Of a DNA stretch of 32,000 bases, positions 4,594 to 32,000 are shown piece by piece (position 1 is the stretch's first letter; each line of letters starts with the position of its first letter). The stretch covers positions 540,001 to 572,000 of the forward strand of contig NC_009483.1 in NCBI RefSeq assembly GCF_000016745.1, read 5' to 3'. Under the pieces are notes generated by a model. That model made no database searches. It was not told the origin of the DNA and was given only the letters and a program-made list of their open reading frames with translations. Source of the stretch: Geotalea uraniireducens Rf4 (lineage in GTDB: Bacteria > Desulfobacterota > Desulfuromonadia > Geobacterales > Geobacteraceae). Position numbers and translations under genes: made by a program.

Positions 4594-4704
4594 AAGGTTA
4601 ATAATGGTTTTTTAAATACCAACCTCGCGTTCTGCAACTTCTTCTGTTGCCTTTGCGCCTATTTTTGCTATCTTTACGTGAATCTCAATAACAGGAGGGC
4701 GTTG

Positions 4705-7700
4705 ATGGATGAGCGTGACGATATAGAGCTTCTGGAAAATAAAGGGATTTCCCGGCGAGATTTCCTGAAAAACAGCGCGCTCATCGGCTGCGGCGCCCTG
4801 GTGGCCTCCCAGCTCGATTTTGCCCACGGCCTCATCGCCCGTGTCGAGGCGGGGGAGCTGACCCAGATGGAGGCCCTGGAGATGTTGCGGGAGGAAAGCA
4901 CCCTCTATACGGTTTGCCTCAACTGCAACACCGGCTGCGGCATCAAGGTGAAGGTCCTCGACGGCGTCGCCGTCAAGGTGGACGGCAACCCGTACAACCC
5001 GTTCACCCTCCACCCCCATCTTCCCATGACCGAGGAGTTGAGCAGGGCGGCAAAGGTGGACGGCGCCATCTGTCCCAAGGGACAATCTGCCCACCAGGGG
5101 GCCTACGACCCTTACCGCATCCGCAAGGTGCTGAAGCGGGCCGGCAAGCGTGGCGATGGGAAGTGGGTCTCCGTCCCCTTTGACCAGGCCGTGTCCGAAA
5201 TCGTCAACGGCGGCGCGTTGTTCGCCCATGTCCCGGGCGAAGAAAAGCGCCTGGTGACGGGGCTCAAGGATATCTACGCCATGAAGGATCCCATGGTGTT
5301 CGAGTCGATGGGGGCCGACGTGGCGCTGATCCGCAAGAAAAAAATGACGGTTGCGCAGTTTAAGGCGCGGCACGCGGCCAATCTCCACCTCCTCATCGAC
5401 CCGGACCACCCGGATTTCGGGCCGCGGAACAACCAGTTCGTCTACTTCTGGGGGAGGATCAAGGGTGGGCGGAGCGACTTCGCCAAACGCTTCACCGACG
5501 GCTTCGGCACGGTCAATACCCATGGCCATACCACGGTCTGCCAGGGGTCGCTCTACTTCGCCTGCAAGGCCATGAGCGAGCAGTATGTGGGCGATACCTT
5601 CAAGGATGGCCAGAAGTTCTACTGGCAGGCCGACCAGGAGAATGCCGAATACATCCTCTTTGTCGGCGCCAACCTCTTCGACGGCAATTACGGCCCTCCC
5701 AACCGGACGCCGCGCATGACCCAGAGGCTCGTTGAGGGGAAACTGCGGATTACTGTCATCGATCCGCGTTTCACCAAGCTTGCCGCCAAGGCTCACCGCT
5801 GGGTGCCGATCAGGCCGGGCACCGATGCGGCCTTTGCCATGGGGATGACCCGCTGGATTCTGGAGAACAAGCGCTATGATGCAGTCTATCTGGCCAACGC
5901 CAACAAGGCGGGGGCTGCGAAGGACGGGGAATCCACCTGGAGCAATGCCACCTGGCTGGTGAAGATCGATAAGGACGGGAACCCCGGCGCGTTCCTCCGT
6001 GCCTCGGAGATCGGCCTGAAAGCGAAGGAGGTAAGGACGGGCAGGGATGGGAAGGAGTTCCCGTTCGAATACCTGGTGGCCATCCGGGACGGCGAGCCGA
6101 CGGCCTTCGATCCCAACGACGAGCGGCTGCGGGTGAGGGGGGAGCTCTTCGTCAGCACCGAGCTCAAGGGGAAGGAGGGGCCGATCAGGGTCAAGAGCGC
6201 CTTGCAGATCATGCTGGAAACGGCCCGGGAAAAAACCATCGCCGAATATGCAAAGATCTGCGGCGTGGAGCCGGGGGTGATCGAGGCCGTGGCCAGGGAA
6301 TTCACCTCCTACGGAAAGAGGGCCTGCGTCGATGTCCATCGCGGACCTGCCCAGCACACCAACGGGTTTTACGCCATCTCCTCACTGATGAACCTGAACC
6401 TGCTCGTGGGGAACTTCGACTGGAAGGGGGGGATGATCGCCGCATCGACCTTCAACACGGACGGCAGCAGGAACGAGCGGCAACCATTTAACTTCAAGAA
6501 GCTTACCCCAAAGAGCGGCAAACCGTTCGGCCTGTCCATCATTCGCCACGACGCTTTGTACGAGGAGTCGACCGTTTTCGCCGGCTACCCGGCCAAGCGC
6601 AACTGGTGGCCGCTTTCCTCGGACGTTTACGAGGAGATTCTGCCATCCATAGCCGATGCCTACCCCTATCCGATCAAGGTCCTTTTCTCCTACATGGGGA
6701 GCCCTTCCTACTCCCTTCCCGCCGGGCAGACCAATATCGCGGCCCTGACGAACCTGGAACGGGTGCCGCTCTACTTTGCCAGCGACATCACCGTAGGCAC
6801 CACCACCATGTACGCCGATTATGTCTTTCCCGACCTGCACTTCCTTGAACGCTGGGAATTCCAGGGGTCCCATCCCAATATGCCGGTCAAGGTCCAGCCG
6901 GTGCGCCACCCGGTAATTGCCTCGCCCAACGAGGTGGTCCGGGTGTTCGGCGAGGAGCAGCCGATCTCCTTCGAGACGCTCTGGCTCGCCCTTGCGGAGA
7001 AACTGGGCATTCCCGGCTTCGGCAAGGACTGCTTTGCCGCCGGTCAGCATTTTACCCGTCCCGATGATTTTTATTTCCGCATGGTTGCCAACCTGGCCTA
7101 TGACGGCAGGGAGCCGGTCCCCGATGCCGGGTGGAACGAGGTGGAGTTATTCATGCGGGGCCACAGGCACCTGCCGAAGAATGTCATCGACATGGCGCGA
7201 AATGAAAATCTGGGGTTGGCCAACTTGAGCAAGGCGATCCACATCCTCAACCGGGGCGGCCGTTTCGATACACAGGAAGCCTCCTACAAGGGGGAGTACG
7301 CGGCAAACAGGTACGGCCGGCTGATAAACCTCTACCAGGAGAAAACCAGCAAGGTGAAGGACGCCTTTACCGGCAGGCATTTCCATGGCATGGCACGCTA
7401 CGAGCCTGTTGCCGATACGCTCGGCAACGAGCCGACTCTTCTTTCAAAAGGGTACGACCTACACCTCATAACCCAGCGGGATGTGAGGATGACCAAGAGC
7501 CGGACCGTCACCAACCAGTACCTGACCGAACTCATGCCGGGAAACGGCATCATCGTCAACACGAGGGATGCCAGGCGATTGGGGTTGAAGAACGGACAAA
7601 TGGTAAAGGTGGTGTCGGCGAGCAACCCCGCCGGGGAGTGGGACCTGGGCAACGGTGTGAAAAAGCCGATGATCGGCAAGGTGCAGATCACGGAGACCAT

Positions 7701-7929
7701 CCGGCCCGGCGTCGTCACCTTTACCCTCGGCCACGGCAACTGGGCCACCGGTGCCGCAGACGTGACCATCGACGGTACGCTGATCAAGGGGGATCCGCGC
7801 CGGGGCGGGGGTGTCCATGCCAATGCCGCCATGTGGATCGATCCGCACCTGAAGAACACCTGCATGATCGACAAGGTGGGGGGGAGCGTTTCCTTCTACG
7901 ATACGATGGTGCGGCTGGTGAAGGTCTAG
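4705..7929 (+). CDS. Tat-exported molybdopterin (bis-MGD) oxidoreductase catalytic subunit, DMSO-reductase superfamily (TtrA/PsrA-like size class)
   Basis: ORF 4678-7929 was trimmed to the ATG at 4705, with an AGGAGGG SD at 4692-4698. The twin-arginine motif SRRDFLKNSALIG is at 4750 onward. The N-terminal FeS motif CLNCNTGC is at 4915-4938. The protein is about 1074 aa. Substrate is not inferable from sequence alone. Confidence 0.9.
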   Translation: MDERDDIELLENKGISRRDFLKNSALIGCGALVASQLDFAHGLIARVEAGELTQMEALEMLREESTLYTVCLNCNTGCGIKVKVLDGVAVKVDGNPYNPFTLHPHLPMTEELSRAAKVDGAICPKGQSAHQGAYDPYRIRKVLKRAGKRGDGKWVSVPFDQAVSEIVNGGALFAHVPGEEKRLVTGLKDIYAMKDPMVFESMGADVALIRKKKMTVAQFKARHAANLHLLIDPDHPDFGPRNNQFVYFWGRIKGGRSDFAKRFTDGFGTVNTHGHTTVCQGSLYFACKAMSEQYVGDTFKDGQKFYWQADQENAEYILFVGANLFDGNYGPPNRTPRMTQRLVEGKLRITVIDPRFTKLAAKAHRWVPIRPGTDAAFAMGMTRWILENKRYDAVYLANANKAGAAKDGESTWSNATWLVKIDKDGNPGAFLRASEIGLKAKEVRTGRDGKEFPFEYLVAIRDGEPTAFDPNDERLRVRGELFVSTELKGKEGPIRVKSALQIMLETAREKTIAEYAKICGVEPGVIEAVAREFTSYGKRACVDVHRGPAQHTNGFYAISSLMNLNLLVGNFDWKGGMIAASTFNTDGSRNERQPFNFKKLTPKSGKPFGLSIIRHDALYEESTVFAGYPAKRNWWPLSSDVYEEILPSIADAYPYPIKVLFSYMGSPSYSLPAGQTNIAALTNLERVPLYFASDITVGTTTMYADYVFPDLHFLERWEFQGSHPNMPVKVQPVRHPVIASPNEVVRVFGEEQPISFETLWLALAEKLGIPGFGKDCFAAGQHFTRPDDFYFRMVANLAYDGREPVPDAGWNEVELFMRGHRHLPKNVIDMARNENLGLANLSKAIHILNRGGRFDTQEASYKGEYAANRYGRLINLYQEKTSKVKDAFTGRHFHGMARYEPVADTLGNEPTLLSKGYDLHLITQRDVRMTKSRTVTNQYLTELMPGNGIIVNTRDARRLGLKNGQMVKVVSASNPAGEWDLGNGVKKPMIGKVQITETIRPGVVTFTLGHGNWATGAADVTIDGTLIKGDPRRGGGVHANAAMWIDPHLKNTCMIDKVGGSVSFYDTMVRLVKV

Positions 7930-9992: not shown

Positions 9993-10143
9993 GCCCCATT
10001 AGGGGTGTTCGCATGTAGCCGGGGGATTCATCCCCCGGAACAGATCCCAGAATATCCCCACGTCACGTACGTGACGTGATGAAATTTGCCGCAATGACCG
10101 GGGAATGAATTCCCCGGCTACCAGCATTCTGTCCCTACGGGAC
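9993..10143. repeat. Cluster of five GC-stem hairpins/palindromes, including a perfect 20-bp palindrome flanked by inverted hairpin copies
   Basis: The elements are CCCCATTAGGGG (about 9995-10006), CCGGGGGA-TTCA-TCCCCCGG (10019-10038), CACGTCACGTACGTGACGTG (10059-10078), CCGGGGAAT-GA-ATTCCCCGG (10098-10117) and GTCCC-TAC-GGGAC (10131-10143). Segments 10015-10038 and 10098-10121 are inverted copies of each other. Confidence 0.7.
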
Positions 10144-10284: not shown

Positions 10285-10752
10285 ATGGATTCCGTACGAG
10301 AGCAATTGCAAATATTTGTGCGCCGGTTCGGGCTCCTGAACGCCACCTGTTGCGAGGCCTGCTGCGGCGAGGATGTATCGCTTGTGCAGAGCCACATCCT
10401 CTTCGAGATACGGCGCATGGGGGAACCGTCGATGCAGCAGGTGGCGGAGGAGCTGGGGATTGACGTCACCACCTTCAGCCGCCAGGTCAAGGCCATGGAA
10501 GGGGACGGGCTGGTGACGCGCCGCCCGTCGGAGAGGGATCGCCGGGTGAGCCTGCTTGGGCTGACCGACGAGGGACGGCGAGTGCTGGTCCGGATCGATC
10601 GCTACATGGCGGAGAAGATCGGCCAGATCTTTTCGGTGATGACCCCTTTCGAACGGGAGGTTACAACCCGTTCGCTGGCTCTCTTCAACGAGGCGCTGGC
10701 CAAGGTCGGTGAGGCTGCTTCCGATGGAAAAAACATTGCATGCTGCAACTAA
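10285..10752 (+). CDS. MarR-family winged-helix transcriptional regulator with vicinal cysteine pairs
   Basis: ORF 10264-10752 was trimmed to the ATG at 10285. The MarR-like core is SLVQSHILFEIRR...MQQVAEELGIDVTTFSRQVKAMEGDGLVTRRPSERDRRVSLLGLTDEGR. It carries CCEACC at 10348-10365 and a C-terminal ...IACCN (CC at 10741-10746). Confidence 0.88.
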   Translation: MDSVREQLQIFVRRFGLLNATCCEACCGEDVSLVQSHILFEIRRMGEPSMQQVAEELGIDVTTFSRQVKAMEGDGLVTRRPSERDRRVSLLGLTDEGRRVLVRIDRYMAEKIGQIFSVMTPFEREVTTRSLALFNEALAKVGEAASDGKNIACCN

Positions 10753-10768
10753 TATTGGGGCGGGTGAG

Positions 10769-10942
10769 ATGATGAAAGTTCAGAAAACGGGGAAGGTCGA
10801 GTGGTCGAATGTAAAGCTGGCGACGCCTGCCGGCTGCGGTCCCGCTGCCGGTAACGGGCTGGAGAAGCCCCCCTGCTGAGGCCCCCGCATCTCCGCCGGC
10901 GGCGGAGCGATTGATGAAACGGTTCCCGGCTTCCTGGGGTGG
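10769..10942 (+). other. Open, coding-like extension of the hgcA frame, interrupted by a single in-frame TGA (10877-10879). It is either a Sec-containing N-terminal extension of HgcA or a separate 36-codon leader ORF
   Basis: The ATGATG at 10769 is in the same frame as hgcA (both coordinates equal 2 mod 3). It lies 16 nt after the marR stop and has a GGGGCGGGTGAG SD-like run. Translation gives MMKVQKTGKVEWSNVKLATPAGCGPAAGNGLEKPPC-TGA-GPRISAGGGAIDETVPGFLGWL, then TTDAGRF... Third codon positions are strongly G/C on both sides of the TGA. Confidence 0.45.
10891..10907 (+). promoter_or_regulatory. SECIS-like hairpin candidate downstream of the in-frame UGA
   Basis: The stem is CUCCGCC-GGC-GGCGGAG, 7 bp and perfect, with a G-containing apical loop. 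It starts 11 nt after the UGA at 10877-10879. Confidence 0.35.
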
Positions 10943-11929
10943 TTGACGACCGATGCGGGGCGGTTCCCGCAGGTGGCGTCGGAGCTTGCCTGGACAGACC
11001 GGCTCGGCGGATGGAAGGCGCGTTGGGGGATCGGCCGCATGAGCTACCTGATTCCCGCCGGTCTCTACGCCGTAGGCCAGCCGACCCCGGCCGATCCCGT
11101 TGTGGTGACGGCCAATTACAAGATGAGCTACGATCTGGTGCGGCGCTCACTGGCCGGCCGCAACGTCTGGCTGCTGGTGCTGGAGACTTTCGGCATTAAC
11201 GTCTGGTGTGCGGCGGGGAAGGGAACCTTCGGCACGGACGAGCTGGTACGGCGCATCGGCGCGACCGGACTGGCGCAGGTGGTAACCCATCGGCGCCTGC
11301 TCCTGCCGATTCTGGGTGCGCCCGGCGTGGCTGCCCACGAGGTGGCCGGGCTGACCGGTTTTACGGTCAGATACGCGACGATCCGGGCCGACGACCTGCC
11401 GGCCTATCTGGACAACGGCATGGTGACGACTCCGGCGATGCGGGAACTGACCTTTACCTTTCGGGAGCGGCTCGTGCTTATCCCGGTGGAACTGGTGCTG
11501 GCACTGAAGCCGACGGCCGCTGTCTGTGCGGTAATCTTCCTGTTGGCAGCCCTGCTCGGGGGTGTTCCTGCCGGGCTCTGGACCCTTTTGGCCTATGCCG
11601 GCGCGGTCTTTACCGGCATAGCGGTTGCGCCGCTTCTCCTTCCATGGCTTCCGGTGCGAAGCTTTGCCGTCAAGGGCGCGCTGGCAGGTCTTGCCTGGAG
11701 CACGGGCTACTATCTGCTCGCTGGCGGCGGCAGCTGGAGTGTGCCGGTGGCGATTGCAGCATTTCTGACCCTGCCGGCGGTGAGCGCCTTCTACACCCTC
11801 AATTTCACGGGGTGCACCACGTTTACCTCCCGTTCCGGCGTGAAGAAGGAAATGCGGCTCGCCCTGCCGGTCATGGGGGGCGCCCTTGCCGTCAGTGCAC
11901 TGTTGCTGGTGGCGGGGTTGTTTCTGTAG
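10943..11929 (+). CDS. hgcA: Mercury-methylation corrinoid protein HgcA (minimal extent as tracked; the true start may be 10769 with UGA read-through)
   Basis: The diagnostic cap-helix motif NVWCAAGK is at 11198-11221, in GINVWCAAGKGTFGTDELVRR. The C-terminal half is multi-pass transmembrane. An HgcB-type ferredoxin gene follows directly. The tracked start at 10943 is a TTG with weak initiation context. Confidence 0.92.
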   Translation: MTTDAGRFPQVASELAWTDRLGGWKARWGIGRMSYLIPAGLYAVGQPTPADPVVVTANYKMSYDLVRRSLAGRNVWLLVLETFGINVWCAAGKGTFGTDELVRRIGATGLAQVVTHRRLLLPILGAPGVAAHEVAGLTGFTVRYATIRADDLPAYLDNGMVTTPAMRELTFTFRERLVLIPVELVLALKPTAAVCAVIFLLAALLGGVPAGLWTLLAYAGAVFTGIAVAPLLLPWLPVRSFAVKGALAGLAWSTGYYLLAGGGSWSVPVAIAAFLTLPAVSAFYTLNFTGCTTFTSRSGVKKEMRLALPVMGGALAVSALLLVAGLFL

Positions 11930-11946: not shown

Positions 11947-12237
11947 ATGAAAGACTTCAGATATTTGCGAAACGTGGCGACGCTGGAACTGCGTGAGTCC
12001 GCCTGCATCGGCTGCGGCAGGTGCGTGGAGGTCTGCCCGCACAAGGTATTCTCCCTTGCGGAAAAGCGGTCCCGCATCGTCGACTTCGATGGCTGCATGG
12101 AGTGCGGCGCCTGCGCGAAGAACTGTCCGACCGCTGCCATAAAGGTAGATGCCGGGGTCGGCTGCGCCTCGGGGCTGATCACTGAATGGCTCCGGGAGCG
12201 GAACATCCGCGGGGTCGGCGGCGGGTGTTGTTCTTAG
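11947..12237 (+). CDS. hgcB: Mercury-methylation 2[4Fe-4S] ferredoxin HgcB
   Basis: The ATG at 11947 has a GGGGAGG SD and lies 17 nt after the hgcA stop. The protein is 96 aa, with CIGCGRCVEVCP and CMECGACAKNCP motifs and a C-terminal vicinal pair GGGCCS (CC at 12226-12231). The tracked 343-aa ORF 11206-12237 is an out-of-frame over-extension across hgcA. Confidence 0.92.
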   Translation: MKDFRYLRNVATLELRESACIGCGRCVEVCPHKVFSLAEKRSRIVDFDGCMECGACAKNCPTAAIKVDAGVGCASGLITEWLRERNIRGVGGGCCS

Positions 12238-13286: not shown

Positions 13287-13318
13287 CACTGTAACATCTG
13301 AATCTAACCCCCCTCAGT

Positions 13319-13371
13319 CCCCCCTTACCTAAGGGGGGAAGCCTTGAAGTCTCCCCTTAGATAAGGGGAGA
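13319..13371. repeat. Two adjacent related hairpins sharing a CCCCTTA-NN-TAAGGGG core
   Basis: CCCCCCTTA-CC-TAAGGGGGG (13319-13338) and TCTCCCCTTA-GA-TAAGGGGAGA (13350-13371). They lie downstream of the minus-strand activase gene and could act as a terminator, but no clear U-tract is present. Confidence 0.65.
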
Positions 13372-16566: not shown

Positions 16567-17125
16567 CCGTTCCCGCAAGGGAAAGGGATTACTCTTTGTT
16601 GCGTTTATCATTTTCGCGGCTATTGTCGGCGCACTTGTGCTGAAAAAGTACGATGTAAGCAGCCTTAAGCCGCAGACCCCACCGCCGGTAGAACAAGCGG
16701 GGACGGTCCTCGTCACGCTCTTTTTTGCCGATCAGAGCGGTGACGGACTGGTGCGCGAGGGGCGTGAAATAGACGCAAGCGCAGATCTCACGGAATCGGT
16801 CGAATCTGTTGTTGATGAGTTGATAAGCGGACCGGTGGGAGACCACGCGCCGGTGTTGCCCTACAATACCCAGATACTCAAGGTGCAGGTGCAGGGCGAT
16901 CTGGCGTTCGTCGATTTCGGCAGGGAGCTGGTGGACGGGCTGCCGGCCGGCAGTTCTGCGGAAATGACGGCAGTCTATGCGGTGGTCGACACCATTGCGG
17001 TTAATTTCCCCCAGATAAAAAAGGTTCAGATTACGGTGGACGGCGAGAACGTGGCGACCCTGAAGGGGCATCTGGATCTGCGCCAACCCCTTGCCCCCGA
17101 CTTCACGCTGGAAAAAAGACCGTGA
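16523..17125 (+). CDS. GerMN-domain protein with N-terminal membrane anchor
   Basis: The ORF is 200 aa. It has a basic N-terminus and a TM segment (LLFVAFIIFAAIVGALVL). The GerMN-like core runs from VTLFFADQSGDGLVREGREI to KKVQITVDGENVATLKGHLDL. It overlaps murI by 44 nt. Confidence 0.8.
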   Translation: MRKERKRSRLVKKYSRSRKGKGLLFVAFIIFAAIVGALVLKKYDVSSLKPQTPPPVEQAGTVLVTLFFADQSGDGLVREGREIDASADLTESVESVVDELISGPVGDHAPVLPYNTQILKVQVQGDLAFVDFGRELVDGLPAGSSAEMTAVYAVVDTIAVNFPQIKKVQITVDGENVATLKGHLDLRQPLAPDFTLEKRP

Positions 17126-17180
17126 CGGCGAACTTTGCCGGGGCGTTGAGAATGATATCATCCGAAAGAGGGCCCATCCA

Positions 17181-19595
17181 ATGAAACAACCATTTTTGCA
17201 GGCAATGAAAGAGCGGGTGCTGGTGCTCGACGGGGCAATGGGGACCATGCTCCAGGAGCGCGGGCTCAAGCCGGGACAGTCACCGGAGGAGTTGAACCTC
17301 ACCATGCCGGATGTGGTGGCAGGGGTGCACCGCGAGTACATCGAAGCGGGGGCGGATATCATCGTTACCAACACCTTCGGCGGCAACCGGGCAAAGCTTG
17401 CCCATCACGGTCTGGCAGCCAAGGTCCGGGAGATAAATGCCCGGGCGGTTGAGATTGCGCGGAAGGTCGCTGGAGAACATGCTTACGTGGCGGCCTCCAT
17501 CGCCCCCACCGGCAGGTTTGTCGAACCGGTGGGAGATGCCTCTTTCGACGAGATGTGCGACATCTTCCGGGAGCAGGCCCAGGCCCTTATCGACGCAGGG
17601 GTAGACGCCATCAGTTTCGAGACGTTTCTGGACATTAAGGAAATCAGGGCGGGTATCATAGCTGTACGGGAAATTGCTCCCGCGATTCCGATTATCGCCA
17701 TGCTCACCTTCGACGACAAGGGGCGAAGCGTTCTCGGCACACCACCTGAGTCCGCCGCCATCACCCTGGAGGCGGTAGGGGCTGATATCGTCGGCTCCAA
17801 CTGCGGTCTCGGCGTGGAAGGCATCTATGAAATCCTTTCCGCCATGCGCCGTGTTACCAGGCTTCCGCTCATTTCCCAGGCAAATGCCGGCCTACCGGTT
17901 TTGAAGGACGGGAAGACGATTTTTCCCGCCACGCCTGCTGAGATGACCGCCTACCATGACCGGATGCTTGAGCTCGGCGTGCGCATCATCGGCGGCTGCT
18001 GCGGCACCACGCCGGCCCACATCCGCGCGATCAAGGCTGCTCTGGCGGAAAAGGACCAGTCAGTACGAGCCGGCGGACCTGCAGAGGGGATCACCTGGCT
18101 TTCCAGCCGCGGCGGTTTTACCGCTTTGGGGAAGGGGCGGCCGGTTGCCGTTATCGGCGAGCGGATCAATCCCACCGGGAAAAAGGGCTTTGCCGCCGAA
18201 CTGCGCGAGGGGAAGGTCTCCTATATCCGTCGAGAAGCCCTCGATCAGGTGGCTGCCGGCGCGACCCTGCTGGATGTAAATGTCGGAGCGCCCGGTATTG
18301 ACGAGCCTGCGGCCATGGAACGGGCGGTTTTCTGTGCCGGCAGCGCGGTGTCGGTGCCGCTGGTTCTCGATTCGTCCAGCCCCGAAGCTCTGGAGCGCGG
18401 TCTTAAGGCCGCGGACGGCAAGGTCCTCATAAATTCGGTGAACGGCGAGGAGAAGAGCCTTGCCCGTGTCCTGCCGCTGGCGAAAAAGTACGGTGCAGCG
18501 GTAATCGGTCTCACCCTGGACGAGAAAGGCATACCCGAAACCGCCGAGGAAAGAACCGCCGTGGCGCAGAAGATTGCCGAAAGGGCCTTGTCTCTCGGCA
18601 TAAGCCGGAAAAATGTGGTGATAGACTGCCTTACCCTGGCTGTCAGTGCCGAGCAGAAACGGGCCATGGAAACCCTCAGCGCCATACGCCTGGTCAAGGG
18701 GCGTCTCGGCTTGAACACGGTTCTGGGCGTGAGCAATATTTCTTTCGGCCTCCCCTGCCGCCCGCTCATCTCCTCGGCCTTTTTTGCAATGGCCATGGAG
18801 GCGGGGCTGGACGCGGCAATCGTAAATCCGAAGGAACAGGCCATGATGGATGTCTGGCGTTCCGTGATGGTGCTGCTGAACAGGGATCCCAATGCTGCCG
18901 CCTATATCGATGCATACAAGGGCGCGGTGGCCACACTGGCAGGGACCCAGGTTCAGGAGCCGCCGCAGGACATCAAGGGGCGTCTTGCCAAAGCCGTTAT
19001 CGACGGCGACGTTGAAAATATCGTCGCGCTGGTGGAAACTGCTTTTGCCGAGGGGCTTTCCCCCCTGGATATCAGCAATGGGGGGCTTCTGCCCGGTTTG
19101 GAGGAAGTCGGTCGCCGTTTTGAAAAGAACATCGTGTTCCTTCCCCAGGTCATGCTCTCGGCCGAAACCATGAAGACGGCCTTCGCGCGCCTGAAACAGG
19201 AGATGAAGGGGATGTCGCTGGAAAGCCAGGGGAAGATCCTGATGGCGACAGTGGAGGGGGATATTCACGATATCGGCAAGAACATCGTCTGCACCTTGCT
19301 GGAGAACCACGGATTCGAAGTGATCGATCTGGGCAAAAACGTTCCGGCAGCCCGTATCATAGCCGAGGCCAAGGCACATGACGTGGATGCGGTCGGACTC
19401 TCTGCGTTGATGACGACCACCATGTCGGAAATGGAGAACGTGGTGCGGCAGTTGAAGGCAGCGGGGGTGAAGACCTTTACCATGGTCGGCGGAGCAGTGC
19501 TGACCCAGGAGTACGCCACCGAGATCGGGGCCGATCTCTACGCAAAGGATGCCATGGAGGCGGTCGCAAGGATCAAGGCCATCCTGGGGAAGTGA
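17181..19595 (+). CDS. metH: Cobalamin-dependent methionine synthase, short form (Hcy-binding + pterin-binding + B12 cap + B12-binding; no AdoMet reactivation domain)
   Basis: ORF 17091-19595 was trimmed to the ATG at 17181 (MKQPFLQAMKERVLVLDGAMGTMLQ). GGCCGTTP is in the Hcy domain. The pterin-binding region follows, and the B12 motif is GDIHDIGKN (DxHxxG). The protein is about 804 aa, against about 1200 aa for full-length MetH. Confidence 0.9.
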   Translation: MKQPFLQAMKERVLVLDGAMGTMLQERGLKPGQSPEELNLTMPDVVAGVHREYIEAGADIIVTNTFGGNRAKLAHHGLAAKVREINARAVEIARKVAGEHAYVAASIAPTGRFVEPVGDASFDEMCDIFREQAQALIDAGVDAISFETFLDIKEIRAGIIAVREIAPAIPIIAMLTFDDKGRSVLGTPPESAAITLEAVGADIVGSNCGLGVEGIYEILSAMRRVTRLPLISQANAGLPVLKDGKTIFPATPAEMTAYHDRMLELGVRIIGGCCGTTPAHIRAIKAALAEKDQSVRAGGPAEGITWLSSRGGFTALGKGRPVAVIGERINPTGKKGFAAELREGKVSYIRREALDQVAAGATLLDVNVGAPGIDEPAAMERAVFCAGSAVSVPLVLDSSSPEALERGLKAADGKVLINSVNGEEKSLARVLPLAKKYGAAVIGLTLDEKGIPETAEERTAVAQKIAERALSLGISRKNVVIDCLTLAVSAEQKRAMETLSAIRLVKGRLGLNTVLGVSNISFGLPCRPLISSAFFAMAMEAGLDAAIVNPKEQAMMDVWRSVMVLLNRDPNAAAYIDAYKGAVATLAGTQVQEPPQDIKGRLAKAVIDGDVENIVALVETAFAEGLSPLDISNGGLLPGLEEVGRRFEKNIVFLPQVMLSAETMKTAFARLKQEMKGMSLESQGKILMATVEGDIHDIGKNIVCTLLENHGFEVIDLGKNVPAARIIAEAKAHDVDAVGLSALMTTTMSEMENVVRQLKAAGVKTFTMVGGAVLTQEYATEIGADLYAKDAMEAVARIKAILGK

Positions 19596-28768: not shown

Positions 28769-28811
28769 TGTATTGATGATGTATTGATATCTGCTATACC
28801 TGTCTATTGAC
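28769..28811 (+). promoter_or_regulatory. Phased direct repeats TGTATTGAT (x2, 11-bp period) plus a degenerate third copy TGTCTATTGAC; possible regulator binding site or internal promoter before the cytochrome gene
   Basis: The repeats are at 28769-28777 and 28780-28788, with a third copy at 28801-28811. A TATATAAAT -10-like tract is at 28817-28825. Confidence 0.25.
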
Positions 28812-28843
28812 TAAGCTATATAAATGTTTTCAGGAGCGTAAAC

Positions 28844-31800
28844 ATGAAACGACCAATTACAAATGCTCTGGCAACACTGATGATGGTCTTTATAGTGGCA
28901 ACCACAGCTTATGCCAAGGAACTATCTAGTCCTCACACATTCGGCATACAGAGCGATGGCTCAACGGTTGATACATGCTCTGTCTGTCATGCGAGTGCCT
29001 TGCCGACTGGTGCTGCTGCGAACAACGTCTGTCTGGTTTGTCATAAGGCAGGCAGTGCATATTCCTTGACCAAGCAGTTCTTCAAGGGGGATATGGCTAA
29101 CCCTTTCGGGACTACGGTCGAGGATGACTCCAATAGCAACTATTCTCATAGTTCGCACGAGTGGTCGGCTACCGACAATAACCCTGCGGCCGGTGCGCTG
29201 CCGCCGACAAACAGCGCCATGAAAACGGTCACTGCGTATAACGGGCTCTTAAGCTGTAATCGTTGCCATTCCGTTCATCAGCTCGACTCAATACCCGCAG
29301 CGCAGAAGCCTCTCCTCAGGGTGCAGAATAGCAACAATGAAATGTGTTTGGATTGTCATCGATTGAGGAACACACAATCGCACCTGACCGGTACACATCC
29401 CGTAAATATTAACTATACTACCGTGGCAAAGAACAATCCTGCGAAATTCTACCCGCAGCCGGTGAACAGCAATCCCAATAACCTGACTTCGGCGATGAAT
29501 CTCATAAATGGCAATATACTCTGTACAACATGCCATGGTATCCATTACACCGACTCGAACTCACACACTTTTGACAACCGCACTACGGCGCTTACTGGTC
29601 GCCTCGCTCCCTCCAAGGGCTACCTGCTGAGAACGGATTATCGCAATTATTCCTCAAGCTTGAATAGTCCGAATATCTGTACCAACTGTCATGCGAATAA
29701 ATTCGAACATAATGGCGGCGAACAGAGAGTGGTCTGTACCGACTGCCACAGCGGCCACGTGGATTACGATCCAAACGCGCTGACCAGTCAGGACCGGGTA
29801 CCCAATATCTATATGATCAAGCGCTACATGAACTGGTCGTCACCAACCGGCTGGAAGGATAACAGGAAGCTGGCTACCCCTAAGCAGACCTTTTATCAGG
29901 ATGCAGGTGCGACAACTAAGCTCTTTAAGCGGGCCGATGGCAAGGGTGTCTGTCAGGGATGCCATGAAGTGCCCGTCGCTGGTCTGACCTCTCCAAATGG
30001 CAATATCTACCCCGATGAGCATGGCACGTCGAATCTCGTCGATGCCCCGGCCTCTTCCTGTATATCTTGCCACAACCACGACACACCTGCACCGGAGGGT
30101 TCATTTGCCGCGAGCTGTACCAGCTGTCATGGTCAGCCGCCGACGGCCACTTCGGCAGCGGCCGGTTACACCGGCAACGAGGCCGTGTCTGCGCACCTGC
30201 GCCATACCGGTTACTCATACGGATGTAAGGAATGTCATTATTCCGGTGCCCCTTCCGACCTGCACAGGAATGGCAGTTTCAAGGACGTATTTACGACCTA
30301 CACCTCAGGTATGATCGCGCGTAAATTTGGCGCTAATCCTCAGTATAATCCTGATAACACATGTTCCACAGTCTATTGCCACAGCAATGGTGCAGTACCA
30401 CCCGTATATCAGACGCCCCCCAACTGGTTCGGCGGCAATATCACCACCTGCGATGCCTGCCACGAAGCATCACCGACAACCAATGCCCATGCGAAGCATA
30501 TTGGCGCACCGAATAATTATAGCTGTGAGAACTGCCATGCGGCCACTGCAACCGGTTCGACGGTCATCAAAGACAAAACGAAGCACGCTAACGGCGGTAA
30601 GGAAGTACAATTTTCCTCAACAGCGCTTCCATTCGTAAACACGGGAAGTTTCGCTTCAGCAACTTGTTCGGCTGTCTACTGCCACAGTGACGGGGCCGAA
30701 ACCTATGCGACGCCTGTCTGGACAAACAGCAGCACTGGCGCGTGCGGCACCTGTCATGCCACAACAACGAGGGCTACCGCTGCTCACCAGCCGCACCTTT
30801 CGACATCTGTGGCGTACGGTCCGAAACTCAACAATTTGCCGGTGGCTGCTGCCTGTAATAGCTGCCATGGACCCGATTACACGGTCAATCACATTAACGG
30901 CTCCGTGCAGCTTGTTGCTGATACGTCATGTACTGCTTCTTGTCACAAAAATGGCCTCGGAACGTCAACTTGGACTTCCGGTATACGCCCAACCTGCGAA
31001 AGTTGCCATGCCGGCTTGCTTTCCGTGATTGATGGCAAAACTGCCCCGGATAAGGGCTTGTTCCAGACCTTAGGTCACGGCAAGAACTCCAGCAGTACCA
31101 GCGTGGTCATGAATTATGTCTGTACATCGTGTCATGATTCCAACGCTGCACATATCAATCCGCCGGTGCGTGACGGCAGGTTGCAGTCGAATCTTACCTC
31201 GTCTTTCAACGCACAATGTAACTACTGTCACAATGATTCGTTAAAGGTTACGACGTTATCCAAGCTGAATTTGCCATCTCACGTTCTGGATAAAAATGCT
31301 TCTCCTACAGCAAGCAGTTGTAGTCTCTGTCATGATCTCCATGGTTCATCCAATAGGTCTATGATCAGAGATATCATCAACGGTCAGTCGGTCAGCTTCA
31401 AAAACTCGACTTGTGTCACGACTTCTCTGAATGCCAATGGCGTCTACGCCGGTTTGTGTCAAGTATGTCATACGCTTACCAGGTTCTATAAAAACTCTGT
31501 TGCAGAAGGCAGTCACTATACAACGGGTTGTCTGAGTTGCCACAAGCATACCGATAATACTAATGGCCAACCTGCGGATGCTGCTTTCTATGCCTTCAAG
31601 CCGACTGGCAACTGCAACGATTGTCATGGCTATCCGCCGGTTCAGAGCCTTGACGGCATTGCTGTCCAGGGTAATTACTCCGGTGCCCGGCTCAATGATT
31701 ACATCGGTGGTGGCGGTGCCCATAGTGTTGCCGGTCATATACCGAAAACCGTCAAGCCAGCGGATGGCTGGGCTAACTGTGCCAAGTGTCACTACGGTGC

Positions 31801-32000
31801 AAATGATGCTATTCACATGACACGTGATTACACGAAACCAAGCAACATAAGGGTTGCTGTTGATCCGCAGTACAAGTTCAACGCGGCACTGCAGATCAGG
31901 TACAGCAGCAACCAGGTTGATCCGCCGCTTGTGAATTCAACTGGCACCTGTTCTAATGTCAGCTGTCACTTCCAGCCGACACCACGCTGGAGTACGATAA
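28844..32000 (+). CDS. Giant secreted multiheme c-type cytochrome (partial; continues beyond the window), containing the Geobacter-type CxxxxCH...CXXCH repeat unit
   Basis: It is not in the supplied ORF track because no stop occurs before the window end. I translated the frame by hand from the ATG at 28844 (AGGAG SD at 28832-28836) to 32000 and found no stop in 1052 codons. The signal peptide is MKRPITNALATLMMVFIVATTAYA. There are 23 CXXCH motifs (the first, CSVCH, at 28976-28990), 3 CX4CH (CSTVYCH at 30362-30382, CSAVYCH, CSNVSCH) and 1 CX3CH (CTASCH). Confidence 0.9.
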   Translation, partial: MKRPITNALATLMMVFIVATTAYAKELSSPHTFGIQSDGSTVDTCSVCHASALPTGAAANNVCLVCHKAGSAYSLTKQFFKGDMANPFGTTVEDDSNSNYSHSSHEWSATDNNPAAGALPPTNSAMKTVTAYNGLLSCNRCHSVHQLDSIPAAQKPLLRVQNSNNEMCLDCHRLRNTQSHLTGTHPVNINYTTVAKNNPAKFYPQPVNSNPNNLTSAMNLINGNILCTTCHGIHYTDSNSHTFDNRTTALTGRLAPSKGYLLRTDYRNYSSSLNSPNICTNCHANKFEHNGGEQRVVCTDCHSGHVDYDPNALTSQDRVPNIYMIKRYMNWSSPTGWKDNRKLATPKQTFYQDAGATTKLFKRADGKGVCQGCHEVPVAGLTSPNGNIYPDEHGTSNLVDAPASSCISCHNHDTPAPEGSFAASCTSCHGQPPTATSAAAGYTGNEAVSAHLRHTGYSYGCKECHYSGAPSDLHRNGSFKDVFTTYTSGMIARKFGANPQYNPDNTCSTVYCHSNGAVPPVYQTPPNWFGGNITTCDACHEASPTTNAHAKHIGAPNNYSCENCHAATATGSTVIKDKTKHANGGKEVQFSSTALPFVNTGSFASATCSAVYCHSDGAETYATPVWTNSSTGACGTCHATTTRATAAHQPHLSTSVAYGPKLNNLPVAAACNSCHGPDYTVNHINGSVQLVADTSCTASCHKNGLGTSTWTSGIRPTCESCHAGLLSVIDGKTAPDKGLFQTLGHGKNSSSTSVVMNYVCTSCHDSNAAHINPPVRDGRLQSNLTSSFNAQCNYCHNDSLKVTTLSKLNLPSHVLDKNASPTASSCSLCHDLHGSSNRSMIRDIINGQSVSFKNSTCVTTSLNANGVYAGLCQVCHTLTRFYKNSVAEGSHYTTGCLSCHKHTDNTNGQPADAAFYAFKPTGNCNDCHGYPPVQSLDGIAVQGNYSGARLNDYIGGGGAHSVAGHIPKTVKPADGWANCAKCHYGANDAIHMTRDYTKPSNIRVAVDPQYKFNAALQIRYSSNQVDPPLVNSTGTCSNVSCHFQPTPRWSTI

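Follow-up and report, generated by a model that had tools for sequence, protein, structure and literature searches.

The window analysed here is a stretch of 32,000 nucleotides from Geotalea uraniireducens Rf4 (NCBI RefSeq assembly GCF_000016745.1, contig NC_009483.1, positions 540,001 to 572,000 of the forward strand), which contains hgcA, the gene of the mercury methylase HgcA, between genes coding for a MarR-family regulator and for the ferredoxin HgcB. In an earlier reading of this DNA from its letters alone, here called the sequence-only reading, it was proposed that an in-frame TGA upstream of hgcA encodes a selenocysteine (Sec) within an N-terminal extension of the protein. The positions on which this proposal was built are all found in the sequence: the marR gene ends with a TAA at 10750-10752, an ATGATG follows from 10769, 16 nucleotides further on, and a single frame runs from the ATG at 10769 or 10772 via a Cys codon (TGC, 10874-10876), the immediately following TGA (10877-10879) and a TTG at 10943 to the hgcA stop codon at 11927-11929. 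The translation reads LEKPPC ahead of the UGA and GPRISAGGGAIDETVPGFLGWL behind it, and the read-through protein consists of MMKVQKTGKVEWSNVKLATPAGCGPAAGNGLEKPPC, the residue encoded by the TGA and a continuation beginning with GPRISAGGGAIDETVPGFLGWLTTDAGRFPQV. Third codon positions, described in the same reading as rich in G and C on either side of the TGA, show a GC fraction of 0.75 on its 5' side, 0.76 on its 3' side and 0.78 in the hgcA core. The closest database protein, ABQ24695.1 (P0001), is 100% identical and starts at a GTG at 10973, not at the TTG at 10943, with the whole extension being absent from this GenBank model.

The affiliation of the read-through protein with the HgcA family is evident from its match to the NCBIfam profile NF040863, which scores 446.9 bits at a cut-off of 275 and relates residues 67-384 to positions 2-323 of the 325 positions of the profile. 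The protein contains the sequence GINVWCAAGKG, which conforms to the motif N(V/I)WCA(A/G)GK of the corrinoid-ligand cap helix and whose residues N144-V145-W146-C147-A148-A149-G150-K151-G152 are invariant in an alignment with 18 full-length HgcA homologues of 382-434 residues (alignment A1). A model of the read-through protein calculated with AlphaFold2 (AF2) displays five long C-terminal helices (residues 231-264, 266-293, 299-317, 325-348 and 356-385), and the C-terminal domain of HgcA has been described to consist of five transmembrane helices (PMC11588087). The profile score, the cap-helix motif, the five helices and the adjacent hgcB together assign the product of this open reading frame (ORF) to HgcA. 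One 360-residue member of the protein cluster (P0124), considered as a potential read-through form, was rejected for its unrelated N-terminus and is probably the product of a chimeric or mis-called ENA gene.

The proteins of alignment A1 read KPPCCGP exactly where the window reads KPPC-TGA-GP, and the positions C23, K33, C36, G38, V52-P53-G54-F55 and W58 of the extension are at least 90% conserved. The N-terminus of the window protein is matched in homologues of 382-399 residues. C23 (codon 10835-10837) constitutes a third cysteine, which is part of a PAGCGP sequence and located 13 residues ahead of the putative Cys-Sec pair, and due to its conservation the extension would offer three rather than two soft ligands. 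At the level of genes, 80 genomic hgcA loci were taken, 76 of which contain a recognizable HgcA core, and distances were counted from the invariant NYKM motif. Among these 76, a TGA is found 78-80 codons ahead of NYKM in 29 loci, as it is in the window, in each case with an open frame upstream and with a Cys codon preceding the TGA, except for a Ser codon in L010 and Thr codons in L042 and L049. TAA or TAG never occupies this site, and the few such stops upstream of other loci are found at other, variable distances, while TGC or TGT is located at the site in the Cys-type loci L001, L005, L008, L011, L015 and L019. The upstream segment is thus conserved and carries either Cys or TGA at the aligned position, in line with what the sequence-only reading had anticipated for orthologues. 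A UGA that is aligned with Cys in homologues and shared at the same site by orthologues with conservation on both of its sides is the pattern by which selenoproteins are recognized, and the comparison thus argues for the placement of HgcA from G. uraniireducens among them.

The Cys-Sec extension of HgcA has already been published in 2022/2023, by authors whose work was not known to the sequence-only reading. Haft and Gwadz described most HgcA proteins as selenoproteins with a PCUGP motif (bioRxiv 10.1101/2022.07.06.499078; journal version J Bacteriol 2023 205:e00259-22), which was invariant in 20 re-extended hgcA genes including GSU1440 and DND132_1056, and which is matched by the P-C-TGA-G-P of the window. 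In Figure S7 of these authors, the topmost row (WP_250697401.1), which reads MKVQK.GKVE.SN...PAGCGPAAGNGLE-PPCUGP-.ISAGGGA-IDETVPGFLGWLTTDAG..., appears to show the window protein from MKVQK on, apart from noise in the reading of the figure, and its beginning with MKVQK would place the start at the ATG at 10772. With the same family NF040863, the same PCUGP and an N-terminal extension gained via one UGA, our case does not differ in substance from the Sec-containing HgcA of Haft and Gwadz. HgcA (NF040863, CU) is also found among the selenoproteins of prokaryotes compiled in a 2026 review. Unlike in the 20-gene sample, the pentapeptide is, as judged from the codons of our loci, not invariant across the family, because C-U-P, C-U-A, S-U-G and T-U-G are also found. 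The first two replace PCUGP in a second clade of TGA-type hgcA genes (L023, L043, L051, L053, L059, L069, L073-L075 and L078), whereas Ser-Sec is predicted in L010 and Thr-Sec in L042 and L049.

In the window, the hairpin CUCCGCC-GGC-GGCGGAG described in the sequence-only reading is present at 10891-10907 as a perfect 7-bp stem starting 11 nucleotides past the UGA, with a local minimum free energy (MFE) of -12.6 kcal/mol. By itself this hairpin is weak evidence: perfect 7-bp hairpins starting 8-20 nucleotides downstream are found at about 0.9% of the positions of the window, and the surrounding 76 nucleotides (10870-10945) are no more stable than dinucleotide shuffles (z = +0.63), for which reason we have dropped single-sequence thermodynamics as an argument. 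Its significance results from its conservation in orthologues. In an ungapped alignment of 17 TGA-type genes of the Geobacter clade, the hairpin is kept in 17/17 with a mean of 6.7 of its 7 pairs (95.8% of cells paired), and two of the pairs have changed on both sides by compensatory exchanges (C-G to U-A, and U-A to C-G, G-C or A-U). Neither the covariation score nor the paired fraction was reached in any of 500 column shuffles, shifting the hairpin to other registers leaves 41-81% of cells paired, and RNAalifold returns the identical helix when no structure is supplied. Conversely, six Cys-type genes from this clade, a small set of related sequences, have retained only 3.8 of the 7 pairs, with a mean local MFE of -5.5 compared to -12.0 kcal/mol in TGA-type genes. 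Thus, the hairpin is not lost from TGA orthologues, which would have spoken against the sequence-only reading, but is conserved there with compensatory changes, while it is degraded in Cys orthologues, and we have rejected its interpretation as a chance structure. Synonymous divergence (pS) drops to 0.38 in the hairpin codons compared to 0.6-0.75 in the flanks, which points to a constraint acting on the RNA in addition to that on the SAGGG peptide encoded by the same nucleotides.

Bacterial selenocysteine insertion sequence (SECIS) elements have been defined by a loop of 3-9 nucleotides, a stem of 4-16 bp, a G in the first two loop positions, a distance of 16-37 nucleotides between UGA and loop and an MFE of at most -7.5 kcal/mol (PMC13188914), and the hairpin of the window displays a 3-nucleotide loop (GGC) with G at positions 1 and 2, 7 bp, a distance of 18 nucleotides and the -12.6 kcal/mol given above. 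Searches of Rfam returned nothing meaningful, either in the whole window at gathering thresholds or in 10700-11100 at E <= 10, as expected for a database without models of bacterial SECIS elements. No tandem repeats were found. With the element of E. coli fdhF, and with bacterial SECIS elements in general, the hairpin shares its location within the coding sequence directly 3' of the UGA, the 11-nucleotide spacer and the G-rich loop. The fdhF SECIS has a larger apical loop and a bulged U, which are contacted by SelB. In contrast, our loop counts three nucleotides (GGC/GGU), a bulged U is lacking and the sequences are not similar, and in the orthologues we find exclusively GGC, GGU or GGUCG loops on an unbulged 7-bp stem. 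The hairpin would work like a SECIS, but it is not of the fdhF-type sequence. A different hairpin, about AGGCUC-AGUU-GAGCCU, is observed in the second TGA-type clade at a similar distance (about 17-35 nucleotides after the TGA), with 4/6 pairs changed on both sides; the titles of the respective metagenome-assembled genomes (MAGs) name Syntrophobacter/Syntrophobacteraceae, Syntrophaceae, Desulfobacteraceae/Desulfobacterales and other 'delta proteobacteria'. In the paper of Haft and Gwadz (bioRxiv 10.1101/2022.07.06.499078), no SECIS element is reported for HgcA, and the conservation of the hairpin, its degradation in Cys-type genes and the existence of a second type are a minor addition to their work.

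In the AF2 model, the N-terminal residues 1-45, including C23 and C36-U37, are predicted with low confidence, as expressed by the predicted local distance difference test (pLDDT), and this part, up to about residue 45, seems to be a flexible arm that carries Cys23 and Cys36-Sec37. It is followed by a beta-hairpin (residues 55-69) that lies in a region predicted with confidence (pLDDT near 81-83 for about residues 50-70), by the corrinoid domain and, finally, by the five C-terminal helices. The VPGFxxWL beta-hairpin appears to be part of the corrinoid domain, and a protein starting at the TTG (residue 59) or at the GTG of the GenBank model (residue 69) would have this predicted element cut or deleted.

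These features bear on the question of whether the TGA terminates translation. The ratio of nonsynonymous to synonymous differences (pN/pS), obtained from Nei-Gojobori counts in 16 TGA-type genes of the Geobacter clade, amounts to 0.24 in the five codons that precede the TGA and to 0.37 in the 21 codons that follow, compared to 0.32 in the core, and these counts indicate purifying selection on either side of the TGA. A conserved start codon after the TGA was not found in the orthologues, where the first ATG, GTG or TTG is located 2-75 codons downstream, often past VPGF..W. If the TGA were a true stop, it would end a 36-residue leader peptide with a C-terminal Cys, encoded by an upstream ORF, and HgcA would start separately at the TTG at 10943 or the GTG at 10973. 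Since bacteria generally insert Sec with low efficiency, a certain amount of termination at the UGA is indeed to be expected, and a separate start agrees with the deposited 318-residue annotation ABQ24695.1 and with the catalytic activity of a short HgcA of ND132, which methylates Hg in E. coli lysates although it lacks the extension (PMC11588087). It does not account for the selection acting on the 21 codons after the TGA and their alignment with Cys-type full-length proteins, for the lack of conservation of the start, which in L016, L051 and L022 would be moved 54-75 codons past the TGA into the conserved domain, for a stop that is always TGA and never TAA or TAG, for a hairpin that accompanies TGA and not Cys codons, or for the disruption of the predicted beta-hairpin by either start. 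In light of the Cys homologues, the TGA orthologues, the selection and the missing site for re-initiation, we have excluded a leader peptide with independent initiation as our main interpretation and consider it highly improbable, and the sequence-only reading, which had named such initiation as the outcome that would speak against it, is supported in this respect. Equally, a sequencing error or a pseudogenized N-terminus, where a former Cys codon has decayed and the remainder is functionless, would need no more than the change of one base (TGC to TGA) and fits with the annotation of the gene without extension. This explanation was rejected and is close to inconceivable in view of a TGA shared at this codon by 29 independent genomes and MAGs of several clades, an intact frame, purifying selection and the covarying hairpin.

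We thus propose that the TGA at 10877-10879 is a selenocysteine codon within hgcA of Geotalea uraniireducens Rf4, to which we assign a probability of roughly 0.9. Translation would start from the ATG at 10769 or 10772, directly after marR, and the hairpin, acting as SECIS, would recruit the SelB-GTP-Sec-tRNA(Sec) complex to insert Sec instead of terminating, resulting in an HgcA of 385-386 residues that exceeds the GenBank model by about 68 and the TTG-start ORF by 58 residues. This SelB-dependent, hairpin-driven recoding, which we infer from the comparative evidence in combination with the established SelB/SECIS pathway, appears well supported. Under the name G. uraniumreducens, the source species is reported to use Sec and to possess eight selenoproteins, among them SelD and two FdhA (Zhang et al. 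2006, PMC1794560), and the machinery for Sec insertion was encoded in all 20 HgcA-containing species examined by Haft and Gwadz (bioRxiv 10.1101/2022.07.06.499078). Within the window, a tRNA scan detected no tRNA and hence no tRNA-Sec, and there are no sel genes among the 20 ORFs annotated with Pfam.

Several points weigh against our proposal. The Sec machinery of the source genome is taken from the literature, and in the literature searched we found no experimental demonstration of Se in any HgcA. Concerning the hairpin, part of the conservation of its nucleotides could be driven by the conserved SAGGG peptide, the stability of the region is unexceptional and the number of Cys-type genes is small. 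The AF2 model, which is based on an alignment of 21 sequences, is with a mean pLDDT of 65.8 of mediocre quality, and low pLDDT is no proof for the flexibility of the arm. Finally, the activity of the short ND132 protein implies that the arm is dispensable for the core chemistry.

It is also conceivable that the locus has a dual output, where full-length Cys-Sec HgcA is made in the presence of Se whereas in its absence translation stops at codon 37 and weak internal starts provide little of a short HgcA, so that the methylation capacity would track the Se supply. As recoding of UGA competes with release factor 2 (RF2) and a short HgcA is active, such behaviour would fit all comparative data, including the alignment, the TGA loci and the hairpin. 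However, a conserved internal start is missing, and the proposal adds a regulatory claim to the assignment of Sec instead of replacing it. We regard this dual output as highly improbable.

With respect to the role of the extension in the Sec-containing protein, vicinal soft ligands are known from mercury resistance proteins, where pairs of the mer type on flexible segments move Hg(II) between sites. By analogy, the thiolate/selenolate arm might bind Hg(II), or else a different soft metal or an organometal, as its substrate and pass it to the methyl-corrinoid site, or receive the product from there. Because the Cys-Sec pair resembles the Cys pairs found in MerA, MerT and MerP, and likewise the CC at the C-terminus of HgcB, we suspect that the arm, with its three S/Se ligands, may act in the capture and hand-over of Hg(II) or a related soft substrate. 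This likeness to the mer pairs (those of NmerA and of the C-terminus of MerA, MerT and MerP) and to HgcB, whose C94/C95 matter for methylation (PMC11588087), is a functional analogy only, as these pairs, unlike the arm of HgcA, contain sulfur only and have no sequence relationship to it. The CU-motif selenoproteins of the SAO system (SaoL, SaoB, SaoC) and rare MerT-family selenoproteins (Haft and Gwadz) share the vicinal Cys-Sec, the link to mercury or organometals and the Cys-Cys of non-Sec homologues, although their folds are unrelated and CU is located elsewhere, near the C-terminus in SaoL and SaoC. A more far-reaching possibility, in which the Cys23/Cys36/Sec37 arm is the physiological Hg(II) acceptor, the methylmercury output of the many methylators with TGA-type hgcA depends on Se at environmentally low Hg concentrations, as the arm requires Se for its synthesis, and the UGA with its SECIS gates the expression of hgcAB, exceeds what Haft and Gwadz have proposed and is made less likely by the short ND132 protein being active in lysates; we consider it tentative and rather doubtful.

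Table 1. Coordinates of hgcA, its proposed extension and the adjoining genes within the window.
Feature	Position	Strand	Remarks
Proposed full-length hgcA selenoprotein ORF, one in-frame UGA	10769..11929	+	386 codons from ATG 10769, 385 from ATG 10772
N-terminal extension, not in GenBank annotation	10769..10972	+	Cys23, Cys36-Sec37, VPGFxxWL segment
TGC-TGA, predicted Cys36-Sec37 (CU) dipeptide in PCUGP	10874..10879	+	aligns with CC of full-length homologues
Candidate bacterial SECIS hairpin	10891..10907	+	7-bp stem CUCCGCC/GGCGGAG, loop GGC; overlaps the I-S-A-G-G-G codons
hgcA, GenBank model, shortened	10973..11929	+	318 residues, GTG start, ABQ24695.1
MarR-family regulator gene, directly upstream of hgcA	10285..10752	+	ORF and translation
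hgcB ferredoxin, Cys form	11947..12237	+	NF040864 129 bits, cut-off 99; GVGC at Sec-capable site, ends GGGCCS

In its vicinity, hgcA is accompanied by further genes whose products carry Cys motifs. The MarR protein, for which NCBIfam provides generic MarR-type matches only, all of them below cut-off, contains a CCxxCCG motif (TCCEACCG, residues 22-28) and a C-terminal ACCN. Homologues with the same Cys motifs and 59-72% identity are encoded just upstream of hgcA in other Geobacteraceae (L001-L004, L006, L009, L010 and L015), with a C-terminal ACC[N/K] from which L010 deviates and which lies beyond the end of the alignments of L001 and L006, and the CCG motif is retained in more distant hgcA-linked homologues (L032, L047, L050 and L071). 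A MarR gene upstream of hgcA is mentioned for G. daltonii in a passage that does not discuss the Cys motifs (PMC10349881). For hgcAB, the protein could act as a sensor of thiophilic metals, corresponding to ArsR in ND132. In HgcB, the GVGC site is replaced by a Sec-containing GVGU in 6.4% of the proteins (Haft and Gwadz, bioRxiv 10.1101/2022.07.06.499078); among the matches listed for hgcB of our other loci, GVGC is found wherever the site is reached (all but L021 and L058), with GAGC in L054.

About 5 kb downstream of hgcAB and on the same strand, a gene at 17091-19595 (+) encodes a MetH-like cobalamin-dependent methyltransferase with homocysteine S-methyltransferase, pterin-binding and B12-binding domains, and between them reside the genes of a BadF/BcrA-type ATPase and of a D-component of 2-hydroxyglutaryl-CoA dehydratase. 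Two perfect GC-rich palindromes, CCGGGGAAT-GA-ATTCCCCGG at 10100-10125 just upstream of marR and CCCCCCTTA-CC-TAAGGGGGG near 13320 (13315-13345), may be terminators or operator sites. Further away, a 1,083-residue molybdopterin oxidoreductase (4678-7929, +) adjoins a 4Fe-4S protein (129-887) and a methyl-accepting chemotaxis protein (MCP), and at 28811-32000 (+) the right end of the window interrupts an open frame that contains CxxCH-like motifs (CSVCH...) and spans more than 1,060 codons. This frame probably encodes a large multihaem cytochrome typical of Geobacteraceae and accounts for a region that appeared to be free of ORFs in the ORF list.

The implications of a Cys-Sec pair in HgcA concern an enzyme that produces methylmercury, a neurotoxin building up in food webs. 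If most HgcA proteins contain this pair, structural models and recombinant constructs derived from shortened gene models would be devoid of a conserved metal-binding arm, the gene calls of hgcA in genomes and metagenomes would be systematically too short, and the supply of Se could influence the methylation of mercury. All three consequences have already been pointed out in 2022/2023, and to these the window adds a confirmed example and a clearer view of the recoding hairpin, which is present where the site carries TGA and absent where it carries Cys codons.

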